Source: Candidatus Tayloriibacteriota bacterium (lineage in GTDB: Bacteria; Patescibacteriota; Minisyncoccia; Phycocordibacterales; PALSA-1337). From it: a stretch of 64,000 nt of DNA. Location: assembly GCA_003151615.1 (NCBI GenBank), contig PLXZ01000001.1:134544-198543 (forward strand), given 5' to 3'. The notes under the pieces were generated by a model. The model was given only the letters and a program-made list of their open reading frames with translations, had not been told where the DNA came from and did no database searches. The position numbers were made by a program, and so were the translations under genes. Every line of letters begins with the position of its first letter. Within the stretch, counting starts at the first letter, position 1. Shown here piece after piece: positions 2,576-59,295 of this stretch.

Positions 2576-2590
2576 TCGCGTTTATATTTA

Positions 2591-5580: not shown

Positions 5581-5639
5581 TGTAATAATTTCAAAGCTTC
5601 CGGTCGGCGATTGGCAAAAGGCTTGAAAAGCTTTGCAAA

Positions 5640-6443
5640 TTATAGCAAATTGGGGGTGGCAATGAAAGACGCTATTTGTCCCCAGTTGTCGAGTGTGATG
5701 TCTTCGGCGCGCGCATTTGACGATATTCCGATTTTGTTCCATATTTTTTCCAAAATCTCTTTTTCAGCCGTTTTTTGAAGGTTTTTTATGAGAACTTTTC
5801 TCTTGTGGGCGAAACCGGCCTTCACAATTGCGAAAAAATGGCTCTCATTAAGGTTATTTTCAATAAAAAAGTCCTTTGAAATCTCGTCAATCAACACCAC
5901 TGCCGAGTCGACTTTCGGTATAGGTCGAAAATGACGCGCCTCCACGGTTTCAACGTAATGCGGCTTTCCGTAAGCTTTGACGCTTATGGACAAGATACTT
6001 TCTTTTTTGTCGGCCGCGATTCTTTTCGCGACTTCTTTCTGAAGCATTAGGACCATTTTTTTTGGCTGGTGTTCCGATTCCAAAAATTTTCTCAGGAATT
6101 CACCAGTAATGTAGTACGGAATGTTTGCCGCGATGACATAGTCGTCGGGCATGTCCTTGATGGGATCAAAATCAAGAATATCTCCGGGGATCAGTTTTAT
6201 TTTTCCGTCCTTTAGTTCCGCCGAATATTTTTCGCGCAAAAAATCGACGGACCGAATGTCCTTTTCAACCGCAATGACCTGCGCTCCTGCTTCCAGAAGC
6301 GCTGAAGTCAAAGCTCCTTTTCCGGGTCCCGTTTCCAATACCATGTCGCCGGCTTTTATCTGCGCTGCATGAATCATCATTCCAGCTACATGCGGCGCGT
6401 GAAGAAAATTTTGTCCGAGAGATTTTTTTGCAATAAAAGACAT
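5640..6443 (-). CDS. rsmA: 16S rRNA (adenine1518/1519-N6)-dimethyltransferase RsmA/KsgA
   Basis: N-terminal KKSLGQNFL motif and a SAM-binding ETGPGKGALT stretch, as in KsgA. 267 aa. Confidence 0.9.
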   Translation of the reverse strand: MSFIAKKSLGQNFLHAPHVAGMMIHAAQIKAGDMVLETGPGKGALTSALLEAGAQVIAVEKDIRSVDFLREKYSAELKDGKIKLIPGDILDFDPIKDMPDDYVIAANIPYYITGEFLRKFLESEHQPKKMVLMLQKEVAKRIAADKKESILSISVKAYGKPHYVETVEARHFRPIPKVDSAVVLIDEISKDFFIENNLNESHFFAIVKAGFAHKRKVLIKNLQKTAEKEILEKIWNKIGISSNARAEDITLDNWGQIASFIATPNLL

Positions 6444-28786: not shown

Positions 28787-28794
28787 TTCTTACC

Positions 28795-29583
28795 TTAGCT
28801 TTTAGATTTCTCCCACAAACTTTCCCAAAGCAATTTCATCATTGCGGCGAATTCTTTGCTGTGAACGGTGAAGGCAATTTTTTCCGATCCGCCGGACGCG
28901 AAGAGACATTTGTTCCCATAGAGCCAGAAACTCATTTTTGAATCAGTACCTTTCGGTAGGTATCTGACCGAGACTAGATTTTTCTTGTTATTTTTAAGCC
29001 ATTCATGTTTCGTACCATGCTGAATGGATCGGTCTGTGTGATTTTCGATAACGTAAATGAAAACACCATATTGAAAGCGTTGCCCCCCATGCCATTTAAA
29101 GAATTCCTCGTCCATGTCGATCATATTTTTTGTCGGCCAAACCATATAAGCTTCTTTCAAATCTTTTTGCCATGGCATGTCGCGAAAAGCTTGCTTGATG
29201 CCAAGTATGCCGGAATAGAATTTAATCTTCGGCCTAGACACTATATCTTTTGGATGATTTTTGCCTATGAAATCCAGCAGGGATATTTGGGCATTTTTCA
29301 TATTCTGTAGTTTTTCCTCATTTGCTCGGGTTAATTGTTCCGGATCAGATATACCAAACGATTTGCCATGATCGTCGCTGTATTCGTTAATGAGACTTTG
29401 GTCAAGAAGGGGGGTTATGGCGTCGTAGACGGAGGATTTTGGCATATTGAGCCGAGCAGCTATATCGGCCACCGTAGAAATGCCATGGCCTATGATGTCC
29501 ATCAATACTCGTTTTGACTTGGCTGGCATGCCAAAAATATCAAGGAAATCATTGGTATTCGCTTTTCGCCGAATCATGGACAA
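28795..29583 (-). CDS. TrmB-family HTH transcriptional regulator (paralogue)
   Basis: HTH VADIAARLNMPKSSVYDAITPL plus a C-terminal domain alignable with 22676..23476 (KIKFYSGILGIKQAFRDM vs KVLYFENQDGILAIYRDM). Confidence 0.55.
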   Translation of the reverse strand: MSMIRRKANTNDFLDIFGMPAKSKRVLMDIIGHGISTVADIAARLNMPKSSVYDAITPLLDQSLINEYSDDHGKSFGISDPEQLTRANEEKLQNMKNAQISLLDFIGKNHPKDIVSRPKIKFYSGILGIKQAFRDMPWQKDLKEAYMVWPTKNMIDMDEEFFKWHGGQRFQYGVFIYVIENHTDRSIQHGTKHEWLKNNKKNLVSVRYLPKGTDSKMSFWLYGNKCLFASGGSEKIAFTVHSKEFAAMMKLLWESLWEKSKS

Positions 29584-29612
29584 ATAATATCATGGGTGTA
29601 ATATATGTCAAT

Positions 29613-30731
29613 ATGAATAAAAAAATCACATGGTCAGTAATTGGAATTATTGCGGTTATCATTGCAATTGTCTCTGGAGTCCGACATTCCAAGGCTCCAC
29701 AAGCAAATGCCAACCCTATAAAGATAGGTGCTGTTTTGTCGCTCACAGGCTCTGCCGCACCGTGGGGTGAGTATGCGAAAAATGGTATTGATTTAGCAGT
29801 AAAAGAGATCAATGCTAATGGTGGCATTAATGGCCGCCCGGTTCAGGTAGTAATCGAAGATGATAATACAGACGGAAAACAATCCGTGTCGGCATGGAAT
29901 AAACTTGCTACAGTTGACGGTGTTCAAGGGATTATTGGCGGTGTATTTGATTTTACGGCGCAACCTCTCATCCCCTTGGCCTTAAGCAATAATATTCCAT
30001 TCATATCTCCATCAAATTTTCGCATTGCGGGAGGCTTTGATTTGAATGATCAGAGCTTTGTCATGCTGACTGATATGAATAAAACCGTGCAAAAACTTCA
30101 ACCCTATCTTGCGTCTAGTTCCATTAAAAAATTGGCAGTTGTCCATTATCAGTCGACTTTCGGCAATGAGATAGCTCAGACACTTGATGGCGTCATGAAG
30201 AATCTCGGCAGAGGAGGCATTGTGGACAATCCATATCCGCAAATCGGCGATAATGATTGGAAAACGACAATTATAAAATTAAAAAGCGAAGACGTAGATG
30301 CAGTTTTCTTGGATATGGTCGGAAATGATCCTCTTGTTTTCTTGCAACAGGCCAAGGAGCTCGATTTTTCTCCGACTGTTATTACTTACAATGGAATACA
30401 GGATGCCTTTGCGGATCAGAGTGACAAAAGCTTGCTCAACGGTGTTGTCGTATTAAACTGGGAAGTGACGTCGCCACAATTTTCGGATATGTACCAGCAG
30501 GCATATGGCGTGGCCCCGACAAAATCAGCAGATAAATATTTCGAGGCTGTGTATGTCATGGCTAATGCATTGGCTAACGTATCCGATCCTTCTCAAGCCC
30601 CCGCTTACATAGCCAGAAATTCATTCAATACGCCGAATGGAACAGTAACTTTTGCCTCAGATCATTCTGTGAGTGATGTTCCTGTACAAATTCAAATTAT
30701 TGAAGATGAGGTGGCGACACCTTGGCGGTAG
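29613..30731 (+). CDS. Third Liv-type ABC substrate-binding protein
   Basis: Start taken at MNKKITWSV (29613). TM anchor, then IKIGAVLSLTGSAAPWGEYAKNGIDLAVKEINANGGING, a LivJ/K-like signature. Confidence 0.7.
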   Translation: MNKKITWSVIGIIAVIIAIVSGVRHSKAPQANANPIKIGAVLSLTGSAAPWGEYAKNGIDLAVKEINANGGINGRPVQVVIEDDNTDGKQSVSAWNKLATVDGVQGIIGGVFDFTAQPLIPLALSNNIPFISPSNFRIAGGFDLNDQSFVMLTDMNKTVQKLQPYLASSSIKKLAVVHYQSTFGNEIAQTLDGVMKNLGRGGIVDNPYPQIGDNDWKTTIIKLKSEDVDAVFLDMVGNDPLVFLQQAKELDFSPTVITYNGIQDAFADQSDKSLLNGVVVLNWEVTSPQFSDMYQQAYGVAPTKSADKYFEAVYVMANALANVSDPSQAPAYIARNSFNTPNGTVTFASDHSVSDVPVQIQIIEDEVATPWR

Positions 30732-39117: not shown

Positions 39118-39296
39118 ATATTTTTGGCCTTATTTAGAGCCATATTTTAAGGGCACTTTGATAATTTTTTGTAAAAAAAGCCCGCCGTGAAGCGAACTGT
39201 CATGTTGACATCTTAGCGCCTTTTGGCGTTTTGTCAAATAGAGCTTGCGTGATAGAATATCTGCATAGAGTTGCTCAACTTCAAATTTTTATAATT

Positions 39297-42005
39297 ATGA
39301 AAAAAATGTTTGGCCGATGTTTTTATATTCTGCCGGCGTTCGCCACAACGGTTTTGGTTTTGATGAGCGTCGCGTTCCAAACTCCTTCTATGGCATTGGC
39401 GAGCACGGCCACTTCTTCGCTTTCCGGCTGGGCATGGTCCGACAATACCGGCTGGCTTTCCTTCAATTCGACTGACAGTGGAGCGGGCGGCAGTCTGTAC
39501 GGTGTGATATTAGCCACAAGCACCGGATCATCTATCGGAACTCTTTCAGGTGACGGCTGGTCTCCCAACATTGGATGGGTCAGCTTCAATTCAAGCGACG
39601 TCACCAACTGTCCTTCAGATCTCGGTGCAACCCTCATCAATGGATGCGTTCCTTCGGTAAATGTGACGACGGGAGCGGTGTCGGGATGGGCGAGGGCGCT
39701 GGCGGGTACGAATAGCACCGGCCTTGTTGTTGCTTCATCAACAGTGCCGGCATGGGATCCCGAGACCCAATTATATGAACAGTTCATAGCGGTTACTAAT
39801 AACACCGGACAAAATCTATCTGGAGCGCGATTGACCATGACGTCTGCGTTGCCGAGCGGCGTTTCAGTCTTTGGCTCATCAGGCGGTACTGATGCCAACG
39901 GCAATATTTATTTCCAGGACAACTATCCTTTATCCGCGGGTCAGACAGTTTATTTTGGCATTGATTTTTACGATCCGACAAATACAAGTTTCAATCCTAA
40001 CTATACGCTTCAGGCAATGGCGACAACTTTGTCCGAGCCAACCATTCCAAGCGGAAGCACCCAGGTTTCGGTAAGCGCCACCTATTATGCAAGTGATCCT
40101 GTTTCTACCTATGTAAATTATAGTGGCCCTATAACTGTTTTGCAGTGGACAAGTATAAGTGGCGATCAATATGGTCTTCAATATAGCGATGACGGAGGCG
40201 TAACTTGGCATACAGCGTACGGTCTAAATAGCACGGCGGTATTAGATACAGCTGGCAGTAGCGCCACAATCCTTCTTGATTTTGGTTTACCAGCAACCGA
40301 TGCAGCCCCTATTTCTACCCGCCAATACAAGATGTGGCAGCTTCCTTCCGGTTCGTATCCCGCAAGAAACTTGAACTGGACGACGCAGGCCGCCGGAAAT
40401 CATTCTTGGTTTGGAATAACATCATCTGCCGATGGCAGCAAACTTGCTGCGGTCGACAACAATACTGGCTACGTATACACCTCCCCTGACAGCGGCGTCA
40501 CATGGACGGCTCAGACGGCTGCAGGTGCTCGTCTTTGGTCAGGAATCACTTCATCCTCAGACGGCACAAAAATCGCTGCAGTTGCTCAAACTGGCATCGT
40601 GTACACATCTGCCGACAGCGGCGTCACATGGACGGCTCACACCGTGAGTGGTGCGACATCATTATATAAAATAACATCATCATCCGATGGTACTAAAATT
40701 GTTGCGGTTGATACCCTAAGTACTGGCGGCTACATTTATACATCTGCCGACAGCGGCGTCACATGGACAGCCCGCACAGCGGCAGGTTCTCGTTCGTGGA
40801 TAGCGGTGACATCTTCTTCCGACGGGACAAAGCTTCTCGCAAGCGATCGTGCTGGAGGTTCACTGTACACATCTTCGGATAGCGGTGCCACATGGACGAC
40901 TCACACATTGGCGGGTGCGTGGTGGTCATTATCCTCATCTGCCGATGGTACAAAGCTGGTCGCCGCAGCGACTCCGAGCGGAAGCTATCTCTACACATCT
41001 GCCGACAGTGGCGTCACATGGACGGCTCGTATTGCAGCCACTGGGGCGTATGGGTGGGGGAGCGTAACTTCTTCTTCGGATGGAACAAAAATAGTCGCAG
41101 GTAATGCTGGCCCGAATGCTTATATTTACACATCTGCCGACAGCGGCGTCACATGGGCGGCGCAAATTCAATCCACAAGTACTTCCCGTATGTGGATGGT
41201 CACGTCATCCGCCGATGGCAGCAAAATAGCGGCGGGAGATTTTTATGGAACTATTCACACGGCGACATCTGTATCAACCACAACAACTGCCAACAGCAAT
41301 TCCGGCTGGGACGGCTGGATAGAACTCTCCGGCACCAACCATGCATCCCCTGATTTAACCGGTAACAGCGGCGTGACCTACAATTCAACCACAGGCTCTT
41401 TCACTGGATACGCATGGGGAAGCGATATCATAGGTTGGCTCAACTTCAACTCATCAGGGGCTTCAGCCTCAAGCTCGTGCAACCCGACATTGGAAGTCTG
41501 CAACGGTCCGGGATCATCCCCGACCCTCTCATGCTCGGGCTCACTCAACGGCAGTACCAACAAAATTACCTGGACCGCGACGATAACCGGCGGAGCCTCC
41601 CCGTATACTTTTGCGTGGACGCCCGGCTCAGGCACTTCAGGAACGCCGTCAACTGTCGGAGCAGTTTCCACCTACACCACCGGTACCCTGGCATCAACCA
41701 GTCCTGCCACCTCGTACTCCGTCACCGTTGCCGCAACCTCAAGCAACCAGACCGTGGCCATATCAAACGCCTGTCCGTCAGTACAGGGACCCCTGCAGTC
41801 GAGCCCTCCAAGCGGCGGACTCTGTACGTCAGTCCCTCCAAACGCCACGCTCTGTCCCGGTTCTTCTGCGGCCACCGGCTCAAGCTCCCTTGTTTCAACC
41901 TGTACCGCAGCAGCAGGAACTCCGATCTGCCAGTACTCGTGCTCTTCAAACTACCACCAGGTTGGCAGCCAATGCGTGGGGAACGGGAGCCTTCAGGAGC
42001 AGTAA
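39297..42005 (+). CDS. Large secreted Asp-box (BNR) beta-propeller protein with a Cys-rich C-terminal region; candidate pilus-associated adhesin
   Basis: Start at MKKMFGRCFYILP (signal peptide). At least 7 tandem blades carry S-x-D-x-G-x-T-W (YTSADSGVTWTA) alternating with TSSSDGTKI(V/A)A. The C-terminus has spaced Cys and PKD-like segments. It ends 19 nt before pilB. Confidence 0.55.
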   Translation: MKKMFGRCFYILPAFATTVLVLMSVAFQTPSMALASTATSSLSGWAWSDNTGWLSFNSTDSGAGGSLYGVILATSTGSSIGTLSGDGWSPNIGWVSFNSSDVTNCPSDLGATLINGCVPSVNVTTGAVSGWARALAGTNSTGLVVASSTVPAWDPETQLYEQFIAVTNNTGQNLSGARLTMTSALPSGVSVFGSSGGTDANGNIYFQDNYPLSAGQTVYFGIDFYDPTNTSFNPNYTLQAMATTLSEPTIPSGSTQVSVSATYYASDPVSTYVNYSGPITVLQWTSISGDQYGLQYSDDGGVTWHTAYGLNSTAVLDTAGSSATILLDFGLPATDAAPISTRQYKMWQLPSGSYPARNLNWTTQAAGNHSWFGITSSADGSKLAAVDNNTGYVYTSPDSGVTWTAQTAAGARLWSGITSSSDGTKIAAVAQTGIVYTSADSGVTWTAHTVSGATSLYKITSSSDGTKIVAVDTLSTGGYIYTSADSGVTWTARTAAGSRSWIAVTSSSDGTKLLASDRAGGSLYTSSDSGATWTTHTLAGAWWSLSSSADGTKLVAAATPSGSYLYTSADSGVTWTARIAATGAYGWGSVTSSSDGTKIVAGNAGPNAYIYTSADSGVTWAAQIQSTSTSRMWMVTSSADGSKIAAGDFYGTIHTATSVSTTTTANSNSGWDGWIELSGTNHASPDLTGNSGVTYNSTTGSFTGYAWGSDIIGWLNFNSSGASASSSCNPTLEVCNGPGSSPTLSCSGSLNGSTNKITWTATITGGASPYTFAWTPGSGTSGTPSTVGAVSTYTTGTLASTSPATSYSVTVAATSSNQTVAISNACPSVQGPLQSSPPSGGLCTSVPPNATLCPGSSAATGSSSLVSTCTAAAGTPICQYSCSSNYHQVGSQCVGNGSLQEQ
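40380..41260 (+). repeat. Tandem ~126-135-nt coding repeats with a near-identical ~30-nt core (ACATCTGCCGACAGCGGCGTCACATGGAC)
   Basis: Core copies start near 40488, 40614, 40749, 40878, 41004 and 41139. Four of them are identical or differ by one base over about 30 nt. Confidence 0.8.
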
Positions 42006-42024
42006 TTTTCGCACCATATAAATA

Positions 42025-43779
42025 ATGTACATTGAACAGGGACAATTAAAAAAGTTCATACTTGATTCGGGTCTTGTCTCGAAGGGTGATGTTGACGCGG
42101 CCGAAGATGAGGCCAAGAAAAAGAAAAGCAGTCTCGGCGAAGTGCTTGTTTCGCAGGGAAAAATCCGCGACGACAATCTGCGCCGCATGCAGGCATACGT
42201 TTTAGGTATCCCTTTTGTCGAATTGAAGTCGAAGAAAATTCCGTTTGAAACGCTCTCACTCATTCCTGAACCGGTTGCGCGTACCAATAATATTGTTGCG
42301 TATAAAAAAACCGACGACACTCTCGAGGTTGCCATGCTCGACGTGGACAATCTTTCTGCGATCGATTTCGTAAAAAAGAAAGTGCATTTGAAGATTTTGC
42401 CGCGTTTGACCGACGAAGAATCGATAAAAAGCGTCATTGTCCAGTATCAGAAAAGTCTCAAAGCCGAATTCGGCGACATTATCCAGAAAGAATCTGAAAC
42501 GTTGAAGGCTATTGCCGAGCAGGACGGCGGCGAACCGGCTAGCGCTGAAGACATGAAGAAAATGGCCGATGATTTGCCGGTGGTCCGCATCGTGGATACT
42601 CTTTTGAAGCATGCCATTTTGCAAAATGCCTCGGACATTCACATTGAGCCTCTTGAAGACCAGGTTTTGGTACGTTACCGTATCGACGGTATTTTGCATG
42701 ACGCCATGGTTCTGCCGAAAAACGCATCGTCATCGGTGACGGCGCGTTTGAAAGTCTTGGCGAATCTCAAACTGGATGAAAAGCGTCTGCCGCAGGACGG
42801 CCGCTTCAAAATCGACATGAATGGAGAAAAAGTTTCGTTCCGCGTTTCGGTTTTGCCGGTCTATTACGGCGAAAAAACAGTCATGCGTCTGTTGCGCGAG
42901 AATGTTTCGGGCTTTACCCTCGAACATTCCGGTTTTCACGGGGAAGGCCTCGAGCGAATTCATCACGCGGTGACGCAAACGACCGGTATGATTTTGACGA
43001 CGGGTCCGACAGGTTCGGGAAAAACGACGACTCTTTACACGGTTTTGGACATTTTGAATACGCCTGACGTCAATATTTCAACAATCGAAGATCCCGTCGA
43101 ATACCAAATGAAACGCGTCAACCAGACGCAGGTGAAGCCGGAAATCGGGTTCACGTTTTCATCCGGTCTGCGCACGCTCGTCCGTCAGGACCCTGACATC
43201 ATCATGGTCGGTGAAATTCGCGACAATGAAACGGCCTCCCTTGCCGTGAATGCCGCATTGACCGGGCACCTCGTGCTCTCGACTCTCCACACCAACAGCG
43301 CCGCCGGAGCGATTCCGCGACTTATCGACATGAAAATCGAGCCGTTTCTCCTCGTTTCGACAATCGACATCATCATTGCGCAGCGTCTCGTCCGCCGTCT
43401 CTCGGAAACAAAGGAAAAACACATTTTGACGAAGGACGAGCGGGCGGTTTTGGCGAAAACCGTCGACCTCGACCGGGTTTTGAAGGCACTGAAGGAGGAG
43501 AAAATCATCGAGGGCAAAAAAGATTGGGATGAGATTCCTTTTTGGAGGCCTGTTTCTGCGGGCGAAGGGGACAATGGATATAAAGGCCGCATTGTCATCG
43601 CCGAAGTTCTCAAAATGAGCCAGCCGATCAAAGAATTGGTCATTAAGGGATCTTCAACCAACGACATCGAGATTCAGGCGAAAAAAGAGGGGATGCTTTC
43701 TATGATTGAAGACGGTATATTTAAGGCAGTGCAGGGCTTGACTACGATCGAGGAAGTCCTGCGCGTCATTTCGGAATAG
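42025..43779 (+). CDS. pilB: Type IV pilus assembly ATPase PilB (GspE family)
   Basis: N-terminal GSPII domain, Walker A TGPTGSGKTTT, and Asp/His boxes (IMVGEIRD, TGHLVLSTLHTN). Confidence 0.9.
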   Translation: MYIEQGQLKKFILDSGLVSKGDVDAAEDEAKKKKSSLGEVLVSQGKIRDDNLRRMQAYVLGIPFVELKSKKIPFETLSLIPEPVARTNNIVAYKKTDDTLEVAMLDVDNLSAIDFVKKKVHLKILPRLTDEESIKSVIVQYQKSLKAEFGDIIQKESETLKAIAEQDGGEPASAEDMKKMADDLPVVRIVDTLLKHAILQNASDIHIEPLEDQVLVRYRIDGILHDAMVLPKNASSSVTARLKVLANLKLDEKRLPQDGRFKIDMNGEKVSFRVSVLPVYYGEKTVMRLLRENVSGFTLEHSGFHGEGLERIHHAVTQTTGMILTTGPTGSGKTTTLYTVLDILNTPDVNISTIEDPVEYQMKRVNQTQVKPEIGFTFSSGLRTLVRQDPDIIMVGEIRDNETASLAVNAALTGHLVLSTLHTNSAAGAIPRLIDMKIEPFLLVSTIDIIIAQRLVRRLSETKEKHILTKDERAVLAKTVDLDRVLKALKEEKIIEGKKDWDEIPFWRPVSAGEGDNGYKGRIVIAEVLKMSQPIKELVIKGSSTNDIEIQAKKEGMLSMIEDGIFKAVQGLTTIEEVLRVISE

Positions 43780-43803
43780 CATTTTAATCTCATTATTTAA
43801 TTC

Positions 43804-45021
43804 ATGGCCCATTTTACTTACACAGCAAAACATCCGGAAGGCGAAACATACATCGGCGAGGCGGAAGCGGCCGATCATTATGAATTATATAAAATGATCC
43901 GCGAGAGCGGCGGGGAGATTGTGTCTTACAAGGAATCAAAAAGGAGCGGGATGCGCAAGATGAACATTTCCCTTTCTTTGGGAAGAATCAAGATGCAGGA
44001 GAAAATAATATTCGCCCGGAATCTCGGCGCCATGATACAGGCCGGACTGGCGGCGTCGCGCGCATTGTCGGTCATGGAGCGCCAGACGAAAAATGCGGCG
44101 ATGAGGAAAATTATAATCGCCCTGAATGAAAATATCAGCAAGGGGAAAACGCTTTCCGACGCAATGGCAGACTATCCGAAGATTTTTTCCGCCCTTTTTG
44201 TCTCCATGACGCGCGCCGGCGAGGAATCCGGAAATTTGGCTGACTCGCTCAAAATTGTCGCGCTTCAAATGGACCGATCGTATGCATTGTCCCGACGAAT
44301 TCGCGGAGCGCTCATATATCCGGCTGTGGTTATCGTGCTCATGATCATCATTTCGATAGTGCTCTTGACCTATATTGTACCTACGCTTACCAGCACATTC
44401 TCCGGATTGAATGTCACTTTGCCGGCTTCGACCCAGTTCATAGTCAACGTCAGCAACATAATAAGGTTTCACGGCATTATTTTGTCCATTGTCGTTATTT
44501 TAATCATCACTCTGTTCGTATGGTGGAAACGCCGGCCGCAAGGGAAGTCAGTCATTGACTATATCGTTCTCAAAATTCCCGTCATGGGCAATATTATCAA
44601 AGAAGTGAATGCGGCGCGCACGGCCCGAACCCTTTCCTCGCTCCTGACTTCGGGCGTTGACATGGTTGAAGCCGTCCGCATTACCACGGATGTCGTACAG
44701 AACGTCCATTACAAAAAAGTTTTACAGACGGCTCAGACGACGATTACAAAAGGAGAGCCGCTCTCGAAAGTTTTCAGCGAAAACGAAAAATTGTATCCGA
44801 CCTTTTTGACCGAGATGATGAGCGTGGGCGAAGAAACCGGAAAAATGGGCGAAATGCTTCTCGGTGTCGCGGTTTTTTACGAGGATGACGTGGAACAGGC
44901 GACGAAGGACATGTCCACGGTCATCGAGCCGCTCATTATGATCGTCATCGGCGCCGGCGTGGGATTCTTCGCGGTTGCCATGATTACGCCGATGTATTCG
45001 CTCGTCAATGTCATTTCATAA
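43804..45021 (+). CDS. pilC: Type IV pilus inner-membrane platform protein PilC (GspF family)
   Basis: 405 aa with two GspF repeats and three TM segments. Its end overlaps the next gene by 14 nt. Confidence 0.85.
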   Translation: MAHFTYTAKHPEGETYIGEAEAADHYELYKMIRESGGEIVSYKESKRSGMRKMNISLSLGRIKMQEKIIFARNLGAMIQAGLAASRALSVMERQTKNAAMRKIIIALNENISKGKTLSDAMADYPKIFSALFVSMTRAGEESGNLADSLKIVALQMDRSYALSRRIRGALIYPAVVIVLMIIISIVLLTYIVPTLTSTFSGLNVTLPASTQFIVNVSNIIRFHGIILSIVVILIITLFVWWKRRPQGKSVIDYIVLKIPVMGNIIKEVNAARTARTLSSLLTSGVDMVEAVRITTDVVQNVHYKKVLQTAQTTITKGEPLSKVFSENEKLYPTFLTEMMSVGEETGKMGEMLLGVAVFYEDDVEQATKDMSTVIEPLIMIVIGAGVGFFAVAMITPMYSLVNVIS

Positions 45022-46816
45022 TTTTAAAAATTCGGGCCGGAAAAATGCAGGTTTTACCCTCGTTGAAGCTGTCGTGGGCAGTTCGGTTTTTCTCATCATT
45101 GCCATTGCCGCCTACCAGGCCTATGCCAGCATTTTTCAGCTTGCCGCTGTGGATCAGAACAAAGTTTTGGCTCTCGAATTGGCAAATGAGCAGTTTGAAA
45201 TCGTCCGCAACTTGCCCTATGCCAACATCGGCGTTCCCAACGGCATTCCCAGCGGCGTGATTCCGCAGAATCAGACTCTCACGCGCGGAAATAGTGCGTT
45301 TACCGTCTCGACGATTGTCCGAAACATAACTATTTCGCTCGGAGCACAGAGCGCGAGTTCGACGGCGAGCACGACTCCCGCGGAAAAGCTCGTCGAAGTT
45401 ACAATTTCATGCGCAACCTGCAAAAATTTTACTCCTTTGGCGCTGACCACCCAGGTTGCCCCGAAAAACATAATTACCGACACGACGCAGGGTGCACTGA
45501 CCATCAATGCCTTTGACGCGAACGGCAATCCGGTTTCCGGCGCCGCGGTGACGGTGATCAACAATAAGGTTACGCCTTCGATTGTCGTGAATGATACGAC
45601 TAATGACAGCGGCGTGCTGAATATTGTCGGCGTCGCGACGGGAACTGCCGCATATCAGATAACCGTTACGAAATCAGGGTATTCGACGGACCAGACCTAC
45701 CCCATATCCGCGACCAACACGACGCCTACGCATCCGAATGCAACCGTGCTCGCCGAACAGGTGACGTCGTCTTCATTTTCAATAGACAAATTAAGCACCA
45801 TTGGAATTTCGAGCGAGACAAATGCCTGCGCGCTCGTGCCGAACGTCGGTTTTACGCTGGTCGGATCAAAAACCATCGGCGCAGGCCTGTCAAAATATGC
45901 CGCAACCAGCACGACGGGGAGCGGCGGACAGCTTACTTTAAATAACATGGAATGGGATACATATACGTTTGGGCTTAACGGCAGTTCGTATGATCTCGCC
46001 GGAATGAATGTCATCAATCCCGTTACCGTCAGCCCAAACAGCACCCAAAACGTGACGCTTGTCCTCACCGCAAAACATCCGGACAGTCTACTCGTCGCGG
46101 TCCAGGACAATTCGACCCTCCTTCCATTGTCCGGAGCCACGGTGACTCTCTCGAATTCATCCGGATATTCCTCGACCCAGACAACGGGTGAAGGTTTTTT
46201 CGACCAAAGCGACTGGTCGGGGGGGCCGGGACAGTCTGATTATGCGACTACGAACCAGTTTTTTTCCACTGACGGAAACGTAAATGTTTCAAATCCGGCA
46301 GGCGATATCAATCTTATAAAATCGGGGAACAATTACATTGCGTCGGGATGGATACAATCCTCGACATTTGATACCGGAACGGCGAGCAATTTCGACAATA
46401 TTATCTGGCAGCCCTCGAATCAGCCGGTTGGAGCCGGGGCCAGTAGCGTGCAGTTGCAAATTGCCACGAGCCCGACTGATACTTCGACGACGACATGGAA
46501 CTTTACCGGTCCTGACGGTACGAGCGGGACATACTATAACGTCTCGAATTCAACGATCAATTCGGCGAATAACGGCAACAGATATTTGCGATACCAGGTA
46601 TTTTTAAATACCCAGTCGGCAACGAATACGCCGGATTTGTCCGATATTGCCTTTACCTACGGGACGTTGTGCACGCCGCCGGGGCAGGTCCTGTTCCAAG
46701 GACTTTCAGCCGGCAGTTATACATTAACCACGAGCGCTCCCGGCTATGCCGGAAATTCCACAGGCGTAACCGTTTCTTCGTCATGGACTCAACAGACGGT
46801 TCCGCTGGGTCCGTAA
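45008..46816 (+). CDS. Giant prepilin-type protein (N-terminal methylation motif)
   Basis: Leader, then G|FTLVEAVVGSSVFLIIAIAAYQAY (class III signal). The 600-aa body is T/S/N-rich. Confidence 0.6.
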   Translation: MSFHNFKNSGRKNAGFTLVEAVVGSSVFLIIAIAAYQAYASIFQLAAVDQNKVLALELANEQFEIVRNLPYANIGVPNGIPSGVIPQNQTLTRGNSAFTVSTIVRNITISLGAQSASSTASTTPAEKLVEVTISCATCKNFTPLALTTQVAPKNIITDTTQGALTINAFDANGNPVSGAAVTVINNKVTPSIVVNDTTNDSGVLNIVGVATGTAAYQITVTKSGYSTDQTYPISATNTTPTHPNATVLAEQVTSSSFSIDKLSTIGISSETNACALVPNVGFTLVGSKTIGAGLSKYAATSTTGSGGQLTLNNMEWDTYTFGLNGSSYDLAGMNVINPVTVSPNSTQNVTLVLTAKHPDSLLVAVQDNSTLLPLSGATVTLSNSSGYSSTQTTGEGFFDQSDWSGGPGQSDYATTNQFFSTDGNVNVSNPAGDINLIKSGNNYIASGWIQSSTFDTGTASNFDNIIWQPSNQPVGAGASSVQLQIATSPTDTSTTTWNFTGPDGTSGTYYNVSNSTINSANNGNRYLRYQVFLNTQSATNTPDLSDIAFTYGTLCTPPGQVLFQGLSAGSYTLTTSAPGYAGNSTGVTVSSSWTQQTVPLGP

Positions 46817-53941: not shown

Positions 53942-54739
53942 ATGATAACGATTTTTACCGACGGTTCGTCGCGCGGCAATCCCGGTCCGGGAGGGTGGGG
54001 TGCTATTGTTGTCGCGGATGGAAAAACGGACACGGAAAAAACCGAAAAAGCAGGTGTCGCTAAATCAGTGACCGAACTGGGCGGTCGCGAGGCGCACACG
54101 ACCAATAACCGCATGGAACTGACCGCGGCAATCGAAGGCTTGAAATATGTTGCAAAATCAGGTTTTTCCGGAGATATTGTGGTCAACAGCGATTCTTCGT
54201 ACGTCATAAACGGCATTACGAAGTGGGTGCATGGCTGGAAGAAAAAAGGCTGGAAGACGCTCGACAAAAAAGAGGTCGTAAACCGCGATTTATGGGAAAT
54301 GCTCGACGGTTTTGCAGCCGAAGCCGGCGTCGGAGCGAATTCACCACGTGTAATTTCATGGAACTATGTTGGCGGACATGTCGGAGTCGCCGGCAACGAG
54401 CGTTGCGACGAAATTGCGACGTCGTTCGCGGATAATGAACCGGTGAAATTGTTTTCCGGTGCACTCGCCGATTATTCCGTGGCGAATATTTTGGATATTT
54501 CGGTTTCGGTCGGCGCTTCCGCAGCAAAATCAGAAAAAAAATCCTCGAAAGCGCGTTCAAATGCCGTCGCGTATTCGTACGTCAGCATGGTTGACGGCAT
54601 TATTGCCACCGACAAAACATGGCGCGACTGCGAAGCCCGGGTGAAGGGCAAACGCGGCGCAAAATACAAAAAAGCTTTGAATAAATTTGACGAATCCGAA
54701 ATTATGGCTCAATTTCGTGAAAATTCTTCGAAAAATTGA
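53942..54739 (+). CDS. rnhA: Ribonuclease HI with about 110 aa of C-terminal extension
   Basis: IFTDGSSRGNPGPGGWGAIV, TNNRMEL and VKGH motifs of RNase H. Typical RnhA is about 150 aa; the extension is K-rich. Confidence 0.75.
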   Translation: MITIFTDGSSRGNPGPGGWGAIVVADGKTDTEKTEKAGVAKSVTELGGREAHTTNNRMELTAAIEGLKYVAKSGFSGDIVVNSDSSYVINGITKWVHGWKKKGWKTLDKKEVVNRDLWEMLDGFAAEAGVGANSPRVISWNYVGGHVGVAGNERCDEIATSFADNEPVKLFSGALADYSVANILDISVSVGASAAKSEKKSSKARSNAVAYSYVSMVDGIIATDKTWRDCEARVKGKRGAKYKKALNKFDESEIMAQFRENSSKN

Positions 54740-54757
54740 TAAAGATTTTAATAAATC

Positions 54758-56239
54758 TTGAGCGTTTCTTTATCGCCGGTATGCCATGATTGGTTGATGG
54801 CGATTCAGGAACATATTTTCAAAAAATGTGCGGTTTGGTCGGCGGTTGCGATAATGGCGGCTGTTCCCGTTTGTCTGCGTCTATGGCAATTACAGAATCA
54901 TGAGGCACAGGTCAAGCGCACTTTAAACGATTTTGCATACGAAAAAACGCCGGTGACAATTGTCGGCATTATTGATACCGAACCCGACATCAGGCCGTCT
55001 ACGCAAGAATTTACAATTCATGTTGAAAAAGTTGATTCAATGACGGTGGACACGCGTGTTTTGGTCACTGAAAAAGTGTATCCGCATTATTTATACGGAG
55101 ACGAAATCAGCCTCGCGGGCAAACTCCTTGTGCCGCGAAATTTTAGCGACGGCAGCGAGAGGGAATTCGATTACGTCCACTATTTGTCAAAAGACGGCAT
55201 ATTTTTTACGATGAAAAATCCGCAGGCTTCGGTTGTTGCGACAGGCAAGGGCAATCCATTGTACGCAAAATTATTCGCGTTTAAAGAAAGCTTTCTCGAC
55301 AATATCCGGCGGGTTTTAGGCGAGCCCGAGGCGTCGCTCGCGGCGGGTGAAATCGTCGGCGACAAAGCTTCGCTTGGGAAGGATTTAACAGACGATTTCC
55401 GGCGATCGGGGCTGATCCATATTGTCATTTTGTCCGGCTACAGCATTGCCATCATTGCCGATTCGATCCAGCGGATGTTGTCGGTTGTGCCATATTTGCC
55501 GAGGTCGGTCAGTTTGTTTTCCGGTGCTGCCGGCATTTTGCTTTTCGGAATCATGATTGGAGGCAAAGCTACCGCCGTGCGTGCCTGTATTATGGCCATC
55601 ATGTCGATTACCGCGAAAATAATGTATCGCGATTATCACGCTTTGCGGGCGCTCATTTTAACCGCATATGTAATGATTGTGCAAAATCCGTACATCGTTT
55701 TGTACGATGCCTCGTTTCAGGTTTCATTTACGGCGACGCTCGGCTTGATTCTGCTCGGAAAACATATCGAGGGTTTTTTGAAGAAATTTCCGCGTCTGTT
55801 TCCGGAACGATTTGAAATCCGGGCATTGGTGACTTCGACGCTCGCCACGCAAATTGCCGTCGCACCGCTCCTCTTATATATGATGGGGGATGCGTCGGTT
55901 GTCGGTTTGATTGCGAACCTGATTGTCGTGCCGTTTATCCCGCTGACATTACTGGTTATTTTTTGCACGGGAATGTCCGGATTTATCGCAATCGCGGGTG
56001 GTTTTGTCGGAACGGTCGGTTCCTACGTTTCAATCGGATTTGCGGCGGTATCGCATGTTTTGCTTTCGTATGAACTCGTCATCGTACAATTTTTCGGTAC
56101 GTTTCCGTATGCGATTGTCACAATCAACAATTTTTCATTGTGGATGATGTGGTGTGTCTACGCGCTGTATGCCGCAGGGTATTTTATTTTGAAGAGGAAA
56201 CTGCATCTGCAAAATTCCCCTCGATCACCTCCCAGTTGA
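54758..56239 (+). CDS. comEC: ComEC/Rec2-family DNA-internalisation channel protein (N-terminal plus competence domains only)
   Basis: DUF4131-like OB region, then the ComEC competence domain (GLIHIVILSGYSIAII) with multiple TM helices. No lactamase domain within this ORF. Confidence 0.7.
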   Translation: MSVSLSPVCHDWLMAIQEHIFKKCAVWSAVAIMAAVPVCLRLWQLQNHEAQVKRTLNDFAYEKTPVTIVGIIDTEPDIRPSTQEFTIHVEKVDSMTVDTRVLVTEKVYPHYLYGDEISLAGKLLVPRNFSDGSEREFDYVHYLSKDGIFFTMKNPQASVVATGKGNPLYAKLFAFKESFLDNIRRVLGEPEASLAAGEIVGDKASLGKDLTDDFRRSGLIHIVILSGYSIAIIADSIQRMLSVVPYLPRSVSLFSGAAGILLFGIMIGGKATAVRACIMAIMSITAKIMYRDYHALRALILTAYVMIVQNPYIVLYDASFQVSFTATLGLILLGKHIEGFLKKFPRLFPERFEIRALVTSTLATQIAVAPLLLYMMGDASVVGLIANLIVVPFIPLTLLVIFCTGMSGFIAIAGGFVGTVGSYVSIGFAAVSHVLLSYELVIVQFFGTFPYAIVTINNFSLWMMWCVYALYAAGYFILKRKLHLQNSPRSPPS

Positions 56240-56804
56240 GATTTGCAAAAAAATCTTCAATGTACTGTTTTTTGCCCGACGGCTGGTAATCGGCGACGTA
56301 CGAGTGTTCCCACATGTCGATTCCGAGAATCATGGCGCAGTCGTTCAACAGGCCGAAATGTTGTTCATCGACCCACGAAGCGAGAAGGCGGCTGTTTTTG
56401 CGATCGTACCAGAGGACGTTCCATCCGATGCCGCGTGTCGTTGCGGCTGTCGCCTTGAATCCCGCGATAAAATTCTCCACGGAACCGTAGGTGTCGATTA
56501 ATATTTTCTTGAGGGGACTTGTCTTGGAGAGGGTTTTTGCGCCGCCTTCGAGCGAGGCAAAATATATCTCATGGTTTCTCATGCCGTTGTATTCAAAGCT
56601 CAACCGTCGCCGCAATTCGCCGATGACGTAAGCGTTTCCCTCGGCGTCTTCCTGCATGTATGTTCCGATCTTTTCCAAAAGAAGATTGGCGTTTTTGACG
56701 TAGCCGGCGTAAAGTTTCAAATGCTCATCGATAGTTTTCTTCGAAATGCCCTTTAATTCCGGAATAACGAACTTCCTTTCTTCAAATTTTTGTGTTGCAT
56801 TCAT
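56184..56804 (-). CDS. sod: Fe/Mn superoxide dismutase
   Basis: N-terminal EERKFVIPELKGISKKTIDEHLKLY and C-terminal DMWEHSYVADYQ (D-x-W-E-H metal ligands). Convergently overlaps the comEC 3' end by 56 nt. Confidence 0.85.
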   Translation of the reverse strand: MNATQKFEERKFVIPELKGISKKTIDEHLKLYAGYVKNANLLLEKIGTYMQEDAEGNAYVIGELRRRLSFEYNGMRNHEIYFASLEGGAKTLSKTSPLKKILIDTYGSVENFIAGFKATAATTRGIGWNVLWYDRKNSRLLASWVDEQHFGLLNDCAMILGIDMWEHSYVADYQPSGKKQYIEDFFANLNWEVIEGNFADAVSSSK

Positions 56805-56852
56805 AATTTTATTTTTTCTTTAACATTTCTTTATTAAAACTTCATCTCGACT

Positions 56853-57815
56853 GTGTATGATTGGATGATGAAATCCATTATATCACTATCGGCGACTGTT
56901 ATGATTTTGTCGGGTATAGGCCTCGGGACATATGTTTGGCATTGGGAGCATCGGCCGCACGTTCTGGAAATCTATTGCTTCGCCCTCGACAAAAGCGGCA
57001 ACAGTCCCGGAAATTTGGCGGTTTTCATACGCACCCCCGACGGCCACACCATTTTGATTGACGGTGGCAAGTCGTCTTCGGTTGTTTCCGCGCTCGGTTC
57101 CGTCATGCCGTTTTATAGACGTTCAATCGATACGGTTATTTCAACGAATCCCGATGATTCGCACGTTACGGGTCTTGTGGCGGTAGTTGCGCGATATCAT
57201 GTCGGGAAAATTGTGCGATTAAATGCCGCGGACGCATCATCGTCTGCGGCAGATTTTGTCGCAACAGGTTCCGCCTCTACGACATTAACGGATGAAATTT
57301 CAAAGCAAAAAATTCCGATAGTCGAAGTGTCGGCAGGGGATTCAATCGATATCGGAGATCCTGCAATTTTGATTCAAGCCCTTTTTCCATCACCGGATTT
57401 TCAGTTTTCGAAAACAAATCCGCAGGTTATATCGTTTTTGCTTCGCTACGGTTCGACGACTGTTTTGTTCGGCGGCGACCTCACGAAAAAAGAGCAGGAA
57501 TATGCGGCTGGAGAAATCGCGTCTTCGACTGATTTTTCTTCGATAACTCCGGCTTCAATATCATCGCGTCTGCTCATCTTGCCACACGCCGAAAATGTCG
57601 GCGTCGCGGGTGAACATCTGTTTGAAGCCTACGCACCGAATTATATTGTTGTGCTTAAAAAACCAACATCTTCAACCCGAATTAAAAATACGCCGAAAAA
57701 ACCGCCTTTTGATATTTCCTCGCTCTCGAATCTTTCAGTCATTAATTTGACAACCGACGGCAATGTTGAATTTATTTCCGACGGCTCGGTTTTTTCAGTA
57801 AAGAAGTTGAAGTAG
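56853..57815 (+). CDS. Stand-alone metallo-beta-lactamase-fold protein resembling the ComEC C-terminal domain, with a degenerate metal motif
   Basis: The PDGHTILIDGG and VISTNPDDSHVTGLVAV region aligns by eye with the ComEC SHPHADHIGG block, but the His residues are largely replaced. An alternative start is at 56865. Confidence 0.5.
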   Translation: MYDWMMKSIISLSATVMILSGIGLGTYVWHWEHRPHVLEIYCFALDKSGNSPGNLAVFIRTPDGHTILIDGGKSSSVVSALGSVMPFYRRSIDTVISTNPDDSHVTGLVAVVARYHVGKIVRLNAADASSSAADFVATGSASTTLTDEISKQKIPIVEVSAGDSIDIGDPAILIQALFPSPDFQFSKTNPQVISFLLRYGSTTVLFGGDLTKKEQEYAAGEIASSTDFSSITPASISSRLLILPHAENVGVAGEHLFEAYAPNYIVVLKKPTSSTRIKNTPKKPPFDISSLSNLSVINLTTDGNVEFISDGSVFSVKKLK

Positions 57816-57986
57816 GGAGGGCACGTTTTATGACGTTTTATGCCATCTATTTAATCATGATTTAAATTTGGCAATATTAACCCGAAGGTGTTGCGAAGGC
57901 CATGATACATTACGGCGTACTTGACATTTTGGCATTATAGTGATAATAATATATCAGTTAGACAACTTTCAAGGAGGCAATTAATT

Positions 57987-58292
57987 ATGTCAAATAAAAT
58001 TAAACATACCGAAAAATGTGAACAAGAGTTGGGGTGTTCATTTCCGGAAGTAGATGCTTACTTAGATCAGTTTTTTATTGAGGGAGGCGATGATAGCCAT
58101 CGTCAGCAACTCCATCATACCGAAGGTGTTGAGGAGATTCGCAGGGTATTCAGTGAACAACATGGTTCTGAATATGGTAACCGAGCGGCTCGGGCCGCAG
58201 AGATACATATCATGGAGGATTTCGGCATTGACCATGTTCCAACGAGGAATGAAGTTCTTAACAGACTTCTAGCTTTCAAACAAGCGAACTAA
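57987..58292 (+). CDS. Hypothetical small protein on its own transcription unit
   Basis: 101 aa. Strong RBS AAGGAGG, a promoter-like TTGACA-17-TAATAA at about 57931-57959, and a clean terminator downstream. No motif I recognise. Confidence 0.4.
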   Translation: MSNKIKHTEKCEQELGCSFPEVDAYLDQFFIEGGDDSHRQQLHHTEGVEEIRRVFSEQHGSEYGNRAARAAEIHIMEDFGIDHVPTRNEVLNRLLAFKQAN

Positions 58293-58304
58293 TAAAACCT
58301 AATC

Positions 58305-58342
58305 AACCGCACAAGTTCCATAAACTTCGTGCGGTTCTTTTT
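58305..58342 (+). terminator. Rho-independent terminator
   Basis: Long hairpin AACCGCACAAGTT...AACTTCGTGCGGTT followed by CTTTTTG. Confidence 0.7.
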
Positions 58343-58388
58343 GTATAGAAAGAAAGAGGTCACATTTATAATTACGTTTAAATTGAGA

Positions 58389-58631
58389 TTAAATCAACCC
58401 CGCTTTTTTCAAAGTCTTGAAAGCTCCGTGTTTCTGAATCGTTTTCAGTCCGCGCGTCGAGATGACGAGATTGATTGTTTTCTTCAGTTCGGGAATATAG
58501 ATTTTTTTCTTCTGGAGATTGGCATATTTGCGAACCATTCCCGTGGGATTGAATTGGGTTGCACGAGTGCGGTTTGAGTACCCGCCTCCCATTTTCGAAC
58601 TTTTTTGTGTGATTGCGCAGACTTTTGCCAT
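58389..58631 (-). CDS. rpmB: 50S ribosomal protein L28
   Basis: 80 aa. MAKVCAITQK...NRTRATQFNPTG is consistent with the L28 N-terminal region. Confidence 0.65.
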   Translation of the reverse strand: MAKVCAITQKSSKMGGGYSNRTRATQFNPTGMVRKYANLQKKKIYIPELKKTINLVISTRGLKTIQKHGAFKTLKKAGLI

Positions 58632-58671
58632 AAAATTAAGTGAGCTGTCATGGTATCATAATCATTAAATT

Positions 58672-59295
58672 ATGCAAACACTTCAAGCCACGCCAGTCAT
58701 TTTCGAGATAATCGTCCTTATATTTTCCATCATCATTCACGAAATATCGCACGGATATGTCGCGGAACTTTTGGGCGACCCGACGGCGCGTCTGCAGGGA
58801 AGACTGACCCTCAACCCGCTTAAACATATTGATCCCATCGGCTCAATTTTGGTTCCGATAATCACGGCCTTCAGCGGTTTCGCTTTCGGCTGGGCGAAAC
58901 CCGTTCCGTACAATCCTTATAATCTGAAGAATCGCCGGACAGGGGAATTGCTCATTGCCGCCGCCGGACCGGCTTCAAATTTTCTCATCGCTTTCGTGTT
59001 CGGTCTGTTCATACGTTTCGGCATCGGCGGTTCAATCATATTTTTACAATTGTGCGGATATATTGTTCTTATAAATATAAGTCTGGCAGTTTTCAACCTC
59101 ATTCCGTTTCCGCCGCTCGACGGCTCGAAAATTCTTTTTGCCGCGTTTCCGCAGAGCCCGCACTGGATGCAAATTCGTCGCAATATCGAGCAGTATTCGA
59201 TTTTTCTCGTTTTGATTCTGGTTATTTTTCTCTGGCAATTCATTACGCCGATAATTCCGGCATTTTTCTACGTCTTCACCGGCGTACAGATTTGA
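58672..59295 (+). CDS. Site-2-protease (M50) family zinc metallopeptidase
   Basis: HEISH (HExxH) in the first TM helix. LNPLKHIDPIGS and a downstream TM with LIPFPPLDG. Confidence 0.7.
   Translation: MQTLQATPVIFEIIVLIFSIIIHEISHGYVAELLGDPTARLQGRLTLNPLKHIDPIGSILVPIITAFSGFAFGWAKPVPYNPYNLKNRRTGELLIAAAGPASNFLIAFVFGLFIRFGIGGSIIFLQLCGYIVLINISLAVFNLIPFPPLDGSKILFAAFPQSPHWMQIRRNIEQYSIFLVLILVIFLWQFITPIIPAFFYVFTGVQI

Follow-up and report, generated by a model that had tools for sequence, protein, structure and literature searches.

Introduction

ComEC, the channel protein of DNA uptake, is best known in its full-length form from Bacillus subtilis, Moorella/Neomoorella and Legionella (PDB 30bt/32ks, 9ic4), in which an OB fold, a membrane channel and a metallo-β-lactamase (MBL)-like nuclease domain follow one another on a single polypeptide. 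Cryo-electron microscopy (cryo-EM) revealed 11 transmembrane (TM) helices and, toward the C-terminus, the order TM9, NS6, NS7, TM10, CH1, TM11 and lactamase domain; the non-spanning elements NS6 and NS7 lie between TM9 and TM10 and are flanked by two short strands, a short cytoplasmic helix stands between TM10 and TM11, and the lactamase domain is located outside, after TM11 (PMC13539106). This article focuses on a comEC locus of a Candidatus Tayloriibacteriota bacterium (Patescibacteriota), contained in a stretch of 64,000 nucleotides (contig PLXZ01000001.1, positions 134,544 to 198,543) hereafter called the window. The locus bears the same three modules in the same order as full-length ComEC, but unlike it distributes them over two polypeptides, with the break after TM10 and a superoxide dismutase gene (sod) lying antisense between the two genes. 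It also differs in having one TM helix ahead of the OB fold instead of three, and in the degeneration of nuclease motifs I, II, and V.

The catalytic requirements of the fused domain are well documented. In Moorella glycerini, motif II consists of H598, D600, D602, and H603, with D602 proposed as the general base, H725 and S728 are functionally important, and mutation of the metal ligands of ComEC removes its activity in vitro and prevents the transformation of Legionella (PMC12455585). The D573A/D575A mutations of B. subtilis ComEC lower transformation 10- to 100-fold (PMC8579336). Streptococcus pneumoniae ComEC has Asn for the first His of motif II and has lost the second Asp; its domain is degenerate but retained, and the organism uses a separate nuclease, EndA (PMC8579336). 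The OB fold remains in contact with this possibly inactive domain, and disruption of the contact lowers transformation approximately 9-fold (PMC12663950). With the same Asn for His and a retained domain, S. pneumoniae provides the best functional analogy for a non-catalytic role in the window protein. However, the pneumococcal domain is fused and its change is milder (Glu for Asp), whereas the window protein has Ser at this position and has lost HHGS and GQGD as well.

ComEC proteins without a lactamase domain are also well known (PMC6299819). Surveys describe about half of all ComEC proteins, and essentially all of those from the candidate phyla radiation, as devoid of the nuclease domain (PMC8579336; PMC6744442), and fused ComEC is essentially absent from this radiation, with six genomes on record (PMC6744442). 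How the non-transported strand is disposed of where the lactamase domain is missing is considered an open question in the literature (PMC8579336). Members of this class, which corresponds to the “DC” profile of Pimentel and Zhang, include the proteins of Helicobacter pylori and of Southlakia epibionticum (SEML1_0777); the latter, a protein of 482 aa with PF13567 and PF03772 from a distant relative in culture, is required for natural transformation, which Saccharibacteria perform by means of their OB and channel ComEC (PMC10633639). Taken alone, the channel gene of the window has the architecture and length of these proteins. They are nevertheless described as having no lactamase domain altogether, whereas the window encodes the domain in trans. 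Finally, the teichoic-acid phosphorylcholine esterase Pce/CbpE and the COG2333-type MBL hydrolases are stand-alone, surface-located proteins with a ComEC-type MBL fold, as the window protein would be; Pce, in contrast, keeps a full binuclear metal site and choline-binding repeats, while the window protein has no such site, a TM11-like anchor and a ComEC gene as its neighbor.

Two Genes Together Span Full-Length ComEC

The principal features of the locus are the following (+, forward strand; −, reverse strand; ORF, open reading frame; AF2, AlphaFold2):

54758-56239, +: ComEC channel gene (OB fold and competence channel), ORF of 493 aa
54935-55240, +: OB-fold (DNA-binding) region, approximately residues 60-161, from AF2 beta strands at 66-161 and Pfam DUF4131 at residues 26-158
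55352-56197, +: competence (channel) domain, PF03772, residues 199-480
56184-56804, −: Fe/Mn superoxide dismutase gene, 206 aa, between the two ComEC genes
56853-57815, +: ComEC C-terminal gene (TM anchor and degenerate beta-lactamase-like domain, hereafter the lactamase-fold gene), ORF of 320 aa
56862-56936, +: predicted N-terminal TM helix of the lactamase-fold product, equivalent of ComEC TM11, approximately residues 4-28 by hydropathy (AF2 helix 2-32)

An initial annotation, made from the letters of the window, had proposed that the channel part of ComEC and a lactamase-fold protein are separate genes here. This proposal is borne out by the presence of all three ORFs at the positions listed and by the way in which the products tile a solved full-length protein. 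The channel-gene product matches the Pfam families Competence (PF03772; 1.1e-40, 140 bits, residues 199-480) and DUF4131/OB (PF13567; 1.3e-15, 57.9 bits, residues 26-158), and the same Pfam search returned no lactamase domain and nothing beyond these two families. TIGR00361 (ComEC_Rec2), the model of the full-length equivalog, scores 84.9 bits against a cut-off of 190, and the three domains do not share one polypeptide, the ORF ending at 56239 after the TM10 equivalent and the lactamase domain lying on a separate ORF. The product thus described comprises one N-terminal TM helix, the OB fold and the channel domain up to the TM10 equivalent; gene callers prefer an alternative ATG at 54797, which yields 480 aa. 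A profile of the channel-gene family (A3, 21 homologs) matches the full-length chain 30bt_A over residues 73-482 (7e-31), and a profile of the lactamase-fold family (A1, 25 homologs) matches residues 515-793 of the same chain (1.3e-43), so that the two together cover 30bt_A with no large gap or overlap.

The position of the break follows from the combination of this tiling with an AF2 model of the channel-gene product (pLDDT 79.8). A Foldseek search of the model against the PDB (entries to April 2026) gave the ComEC OB domain 9iew as the best match, a weak one (E 0.02), while its membrane part retrieved noise only and no full-length ComEC entry was returned; the sequence-profile match to 30bt_A was therefore relied on instead. 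In its C-terminal part the model contains a strand (378-380), two helices (381-411 and 415-447), a second strand (453-455), a last TM helix (461-481) and a disordered tail. Matched to the published helix order, the model and the tiling place the break after TM10. The channel product consequently ends in the cytoplasm, and the lactamase-fold product begins with the equivalent of TM11.

The best 120 homologs of the channel gene, of 386-667 aa, all consist of OB and Competence domains only. A homolog of 667 aa (P0035) was considered as a fused form and rejected, its extra C-terminus being unrelated to the MBL domain.

A Membrane-Anchored Lactamase Fold Encoded in Trans

Homology of the second gene to the ComEC lactamase domain, which the initial annotation had proposed, is supported by sequence and by predicted structure. 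The product (316 aa if translated from the alternative ATG at 56865 that gene callers choose) stays below the threshold of Pfam Lactamase_B (PF00753; 17.6 bits vs. a gathering cut-off of 22.7), which a canonical relative in the same gene order (P0022) passes. Among solved structures, phmmer nonetheless ranked the ComEC beta-lactamase-like domain of M. glycerini first (9ic4_A, 2.8e-07), with full-length ComEC also matched (30bt_A, 7.7e-07, residues 547-700), and the A1 profile, besides its match to 30bt_A, finds 9ic4_A at 1.5e-41. An AlphaFold model built on the alignment of the 25 homologs (pLDDT 87.4, pTM 0.87) has as its top Foldseek match 9ic4 (E 6e-18, TM-score 0.74 on the target), i.e., an MBL (alpha-beta/beta-alpha) fold closest to the ComEC domain. 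The next match is Pce/CbpE (2bib/1wra; E 2.5e-11 to 5e-10), which is also regarded as the closest structural relative of the ComEC lactamase domain (PMC12455585). A mapping of the pin loops published for ComEC (Legionella 517-527 and 682-694) on the window protein was set aside, since the alignment of loop 2 is ambiguous, with a segment rich in Lys and Pro (KKPKKPPF) in place of NNFGHP and a low pLDDT.

The N-terminus of the product accounts for the remainder of the missing chain. Profile positions from 13 onward align to residues 515-529 of 30bt_A, and the N-terminal hydrophobic helix falls on the 30bt_A segment AILTLATLLIFLYPP. Ahead of this helix, the residues of the lactamase-fold homologs carry a charge of +3 to +5, which under the positive-inside rule points to an anchor inserted N-in/C-out; the lactamase fold would then lie on the outer face of the membrane, as it does in fused ComEC.

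Partial Loss of the Nuclease Motifs

Alignments to ComEC locate the five motifs of the domain as follows:

57147-57164, +: motif II remnant, N99-P-D101-D102-S103-H104 for canonical H-x-D-x-D-H, from the translation and its alignment to STHPDADHIGGL of ComEC
57585-57596, +: motif V remnant, H245-A-E-N for canonical H-H-G-S, from the translation and alignments
Motif I, from alignments: canonical G-Q-G-D, G-N-L-A in the window protein
Motif III, from alignments: canonical Asn, kept as N189 (SKTN)
Motif IV, from alignments: canonical bridging Asp, kept as D209 (GGD)

The Asn of motif III is presumably a metal ligand, by analogy with the Pce site. The Asp of motif IV is assigned as a ligand after PMC8579336. 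As the initial annotation had read it, the block aligned with the HPDADHIGG of ComEC is NPDDSHVTG, the translation of 57147-57173. Within it the equivalents of H598 and D602 are replaced by Asn and Ser, and those of D600 and H603 are kept as D101 and H104. Elsewhere, the Asp of motif I and the second His of motif V are gone, leaving H245 as the only His of the latter, and the substrate-contacting Ser equivalent to S728 is an Asn. The statement that the His motif had been lost is therefore correct for the equivalents of H598 and D602, for the Asp of motif I and for the second motif V His, and too sweeping for D101, H104, N189, D209, and H245, the five canonical positions that remain. The further suggestion of a catalytically dead nuclease domain is likely in view of the key residues changed, and is tempered by the five retained; the nuclease of the window protein is probably inactive or much weakened.

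A Lineage-Wide Arrangement Older than the Loss of Motifs

The split is common to other genomes of the lineage, as had been proposed for verification. Homologs of the lactamase-fold gene (30-42% identity) occur across relatives in the same gene order, namely RecJ, RNase H, ComEC channel gene, antisense sod, lactamase-fold gene, L28, site-2 protease (S2P), S12, and S7. Metagenome contigs were scanned with the channel-gene profile, a search unbiased towards the presence of the lactamase-fold gene, and the 80 loci obtained were annotated by profile searches. Among the 61 informative non-redundant loci found in this way, 56 (~92%) have the order channel gene, antisense sod and lactamase-fold gene, two have both halves without sod (L080, L104), and three have no partner downstream (L095, L096, L103), one of which, L103, has it upstream on the other strand. 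For all 87 non-redundant loci, the corresponding counts are 67, two, and three. In L104, where no sod intervenes, the stop codon of the channel gene and the start codon of the lactamase-fold gene share the sequence ATGA, as is usual for translationally coupled genes. The three-gene arrangement recurs across dozens of independent assemblies, its ORFs intact and of comparable length, and is thus no artefact of assembly or of a frameshift. A two-gene ComEC with an intervening sod is an ancient, lineage-wide trait of a large Patescibacteria clade, and we regard the two-gene architecture and its conservation as practically certain.

The 69 loci that have a partner also differ in the state of its motifs: 59 are degenerate, nine are canonical (QGD, HxDxDH, HHGS) and one is near-canonical (L064, NPDTDH). 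Degeneration takes several forms, i.e., NPDDSH/KNDDAH, NSPAKN, and PSATPAQ with GNL and YNS. Eight of the nine canonical loci have sod between the halves, the ninth being L104. In a neighbor-joining (NJ) tree calculated for the channel gene, the loci with canonical partners branch off as a basal grade, and the sister group of L064 is a single large clade, the window included, in which all partners are degenerate. Because the basal relatives display the same three-gene order with intact motifs, the split is older than the loss of motifs, and the data fit a history in which the split and the placement of sod predate a single onset of motif decay that started with the change from His to Asn.

Other arrangements of ComEC-type MBL genes were encountered outside this synteny. 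L022 (1-4762), from an unrelated uncultured bacterium, has an ORF of 1136 aa, truncated at the beginning of the contig, to which the channel and the lactamase-fold profiles both match; it is followed by a ComEC-type MBL gene that stands alone and has canonical motifs (STHPDFDH, HHGS). A copy encoded in trans can thus coexist with an apparently fused one. In L013 (5596-7098), an ORF of 500 aa joins the C-terminal part of the Competence domain to a lactamase fold that is degenerate (TSPRQDH). The context of L013/P0024 is unrelated, with genes of integrase-like, transposase-like and pentapeptide-repeat types, and this fused relative was set aside from the comparison. L023-L029, from Bacillus and relatives, are distant lactamase-fold relatives of ~560-585 aa with a canonical HPDADH at ~260-315 residues from the N-terminus, and are too short for the standard Bacillus ComEC of ~776 aa. 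In S. epibionticum ML1, SEML1_0132-0134 code for an MBL fold metallo-hydrolase (211 aa, PF13483), then L28 and a site-2 protease (PMC10633639, supplement), which is the lactamase-fold/L28/M50 order of the window; comEC of this organism (SEML1_0777) is found elsewhere in its genome.

The Degenerate Gene is Maintained

In comparison with L032, the closest relative for which DNA is available, the ratio of nonsynonymous to synonymous substitution rates (dN/dS) is 0.157 for the lactamase-fold gene, 0.149 for sod and 0.075 for the channel gene, rough values given a dS of 0.97-1.44. A dN/dS of ~0.16 shows that the degenerate gene is maintained by purifying selection. Across 16 degenerate homologs, 35 alignment columns do not vary; among them are DGG, PFYRR-x-ID, SKT, and, near the C-terminus, K-x-x-F-x-I. 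The scan of 1.84 billion cluster representatives with the lactamase-fold profile retrieved 380 at E≤1e-30. Each of the best 150 is a protein of 155-396 aa that stands alone, and in nearly all of them the match begins within the first ~20 profile positions; degenerate sequences occupy the first ~105 places, and canonical stand-alone forms come after them. Judged from these comparisons, the lactamase-fold gene is a member of a large family that Pfam and NCBIfam models do not recognize, and not a pseudogene.

The Antisense Sod Gene

The remaining features of the locus concern the borders of sod:

56184-56239, both strands: tail-to-tail (convergent) overlap of the channel ORF and the sod ORF, 56 nt from the ORF coordinates
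56805-56852, no strand: AT-rich spacer separating sod from the lactamase-fold gene, which start divergently, 48 nt from the sequence

The initial annotation had recognized in the reverse-strand ORF a sod that overlaps the channel gene convergently. Both superoxide dismutase (SOD) domains of Pfam indeed score above their gathering cut-offs (Sod_Fe_C, 1.5e-21, 76.8 bits, cut-off 20.9; Sod_Fe_N, 4.9e-07, 30.6 bits, cut-off 27), while the NCBIfam SOD equivalogs are all under cut-off. The Fe-SOD of Aquifex (1coj, 1.5e-21) is the best PDB match and that of Sulfolobus (1wb8) is also among the best. In alignments to these two proteins, all four ligand positions are filled (H in DEH, H in RNHE, D and H in DMWEH), the identities of the ligands (His, His, Asp, and His) being taken from established knowledge of the family. 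With a mean identity to relatives of 63.8%, sod is the most conserved of the three genes (channel gene 47.7%, lactamase-fold gene 38.0%). Its product is probably a functional SOD and a mechanistically unrelated passenger, kept at this site by the extreme compaction of the genome. A connection of sod to ComEC function, such as Mn supply, was considered and found no support beyond position.

The overlap with the channel gene is probably passive and incidental as well, a product of compaction. The last nine residues of the channel product, QNSPRSPPS, are merely the antisense reading of the conserved SOD C-terminus NWEVIEGNF, and residues 485-493 are disordered in the AF2 model (pLDDT <50), hence the passive appearance of the overlap. 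A positive overlap occurs in 45 related loci and measures exactly 73 nt in 24 non-redundant ones (L018, L019, L020, L040-L049, L051, L053-L055, L067, L072-L075, L107, L109), in which the channel tail ...KKSST lies opposite the conserved SOD C-terminal block including EDFF, with the channel stop codon embedded there.

On the other side of sod, the spacer region contains one weak sigma-70-like match (56834-56861). Scans of 54400-58700 were uninformative on transcription units, as neither promoters (10 matches vs. a background of 6.9±2.9) nor terminators (nine vs. 6.4±2.6) stood out. While 48 nt separate the two divergent start sites in the window, the distance is only 0-17 nt in L044, L046, L042, L048, L041, and L072, which implies that the lactamase-fold gene must be transcribed there from inside sod, or through sod in antisense.

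A Proposed Two-Piece ComEC and its Alternatives

We favor, with moderate confidence in the statement as a whole, a two-piece ComEC whose outer lactamase-fold subunit is non-catalytic or much weakened. The OB fold and the channel, as far as the TM10 equivalent, are supplied by the channel gene, whose product ends in the cytoplasm, and the TM11-equivalent helix of the lactamase-fold gene would carry the ComEC-type domain to the external side of the membrane. There the two products are expected to assemble, the lactamase fold most likely making the contacts with the OB fold and the entrance of the channel that the domain makes in fused ComEC. Both the break and the antisense sod would have been inherited from a deep ancestor of a large Patescibacteria clade, one large subclade of which, including this genome, would then have lost the canonical residues with the protein still under purifying selection. 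In the window, the lactamase-fold product may serve a structural purpose, positioning or guiding DNA where it enters the channel, and the non-transported strand would be handled by another nuclease or mechanism; such a non-catalytic guide role seems to us slightly better than evenly balanced. A broader reading would make the protein an obligatory second subunit encoded in trans throughout the large clade and a pseudoenzyme in most of it, its lactamase fold acting as a wedge that splits the duplex or guides the DNA, with strand removal by another nuclease or none, and with expression of the two-piece channel antisense to sod linking competence to oxidative-stress defense. This joint version is tentative and, taken whole, somewhat unlikely.

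Several points weigh against the two-piece, non-catalytic reading. Within the subclade of the window, D-D-x-H, N189, mostly D209, and H245 are conserved, and a one-metal site with some hydrolytic activity is possible. The comEC gene of S. epibionticum has neither sod nor a ComEC-type MBL gene beside it, from which it follows that the partner is not universally required in the radiation. The whole block from RecJ to S7 is syntenic in relatives, and adjacency alone is accordingly no proof of functional coupling. The order of events leans on a channel-gene NJ tree that is a distance tree with no support values, rooted on the fused ComEC of L022, and the history behind the two genes may be one of fission or one in which they were never fused.

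The retained residues could mean that the lactamase-fold product is still an active hydrolase or nuclease working through a rearranged site (N99, D101, D102, H104, N189, D209, and H245), perhaps with one metal, in which case the two-gene ComEC would degrade the non-transported strand itself. Five residues at canonical ligand positions, the persistence of D-D-x-H in the subclade of the window (TNPDDSH, TKNDDAH, TNLDDAH, TEPDDSH, TNDDDSH) and a purifying selection as strong as that on sod are in keeping with an active enzyme. However, Ser stands at the position of the general base (the D602 equivalent), changes also affect the equivalents of H598 and S728, the Asp of motif I and the second motif V His, and sister subclades keep the protein with the site wholly gone (PSATPAQ or NSPAKN, GNL for GD, YNS for HHGS). 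The function under selection across the clade thus cannot be this catalysis, and continued activity of this kind is unlikely. The frozen gene order invites a different explanation, by which a descendant of the ComEC nuclease domain now serves another surface function, such as binding to host cells or the envelope. Besides the synteny of the entire RecJ-to-S7 block, which makes adjacency weak evidence, such a change of function would accommodate the surface esterase Pce/CbpE as the closest non-ComEC structural relative, the new family-specific motifs PFYRR, SKT[NS], and KKPKKPPF, and the S. epibionticum ComEC that works without such a neighbor. It sits poorly with the TM11-equivalent anchor, kept by nearly all of the best 150 family members (the match from the first ~20 profile positions mentioned above), with the pairing of the halves in 58 of the 61 informative channel-found loci, a 59th having its partner just upstream, and with the ATGA junction of L104, which indicates co-expression of the halves. 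Moreover, DGG...PFYRR.ID, the block with the highest conservation, is aligned to a portion of solved ComEC that contains F572, which belongs to the residues of the periplasmic channel entrance (PMC13539106). A departure from DNA uptake is hence distinctly unlikely in our opinion.

The two remaining alternatives bear on origin and on authenticity. The two-gene state may be primitive, the genes having been separate in the ancestor and fused in other bacteria, as the near absence of the fused form from the candidate phyla radiation, with its six genomes (PMC6744442), and the large number of stand-alone canonical ComEC-type MBL proteins would allow. Against this, the lactamase-fold gene has an exact TM11 equivalent and starts where the channel gene stops, and the ATGA junction of L104 is the expected leftover of a simple stop/start mutation in a fused gene; neither argument is decisive. 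A primitive split is doubtful without being far-fetched, and it bears on history, not on present function. As for the lactamase-fold gene being a decaying pseudogene, or the split an artefact of assembly or annotation, the sub-threshold Pfam and NCBIfam matches and the fastest evolution of the three genes (mean identity of 38%) might be taken in this sense. The data already contradict it, given intact ORFs in dozens of independent assemblies, a dN/dS of 0.157, the 35 invariant columns and a confidently predicted fold, and its probability is negligible.

Other Genes of the Window

Immediately downstream of the lactamase-fold gene, a DUF6915 gene (57921-58292, +) separates it from L28 in this genome only; since the syntenic loci of relatives go directly to L28 or to the site-2 protease, this gene looks like a recent insertion. 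Upstream of comEC, the RNase H gene (53942-54739, +) has a C-terminal extension of ~100 residues with a weak match (0.0022, below threshold) to the N-terminal hybrid-binding domain of RNase H1, here at the end opposite to its usual one; RNase H genes of relatives code for 162-280 aa. A type IV pilus-like cluster (39231-46816, +) lies ~10 kb upstream of the ComEC locus and comprises a 924-aa ORF without a Pfam match, a PilB-type ATPase (42025-43779), a PilC-type platform protein (43804-45021) and a 602-aa protein with prealbumin/CarboxypepD_reg-like domains. Further candidate genes of DNA processing or competence are a Mg-chelatase/ChlI-type AAA protein with a Lon_C-like N-terminal domain (9870-11333, −), an architecture associated with ComM/YifB, and a UvrD-type helicase (6459-8465, −). 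For three consecutive large ORFs (755-5742, −; 606, 698, and 352 aa), Pfam gave no match at 1e-05, and three paralogous periplasmic-binding-protein genes (Peripla_BP_6) within 6 kb (24760-30731, +) suggest an expanded solute-uptake cluster. Rfam and tRNA scans of the window found four tRNAs and no rRNA.

Implications for DNA Uptake in the Candidate Phyla Radiation

Organisms of the candidate phyla radiation rely on nucleotides that they scavenge, and natural competence now makes a few of them accessible to genetics. The present comparison indicates that the lactamase domain of ComEC is present in a large part of the radiation, as a separate protein predicted to be anchored in the membrane. Since this domain is encoded in trans, surveys of ComEC polypeptides (PMC6299819; PMC6744442) miss it and undercount the nuclease domain. 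In the open-access literature searched, no description was found of a trans-encoded, TM11-anchored lactamase-fold partner of ComEC, of its degeneration or of an intervening sod. One clade offers a series that leads from intact motifs through Asn for His to fully degenerate forms, all of them apparently under selection, and this series argues for a non-catalytic role of the lactamase fold in DNA uptake, an idea raised earlier for S. pneumoniae, where it is hard to test.

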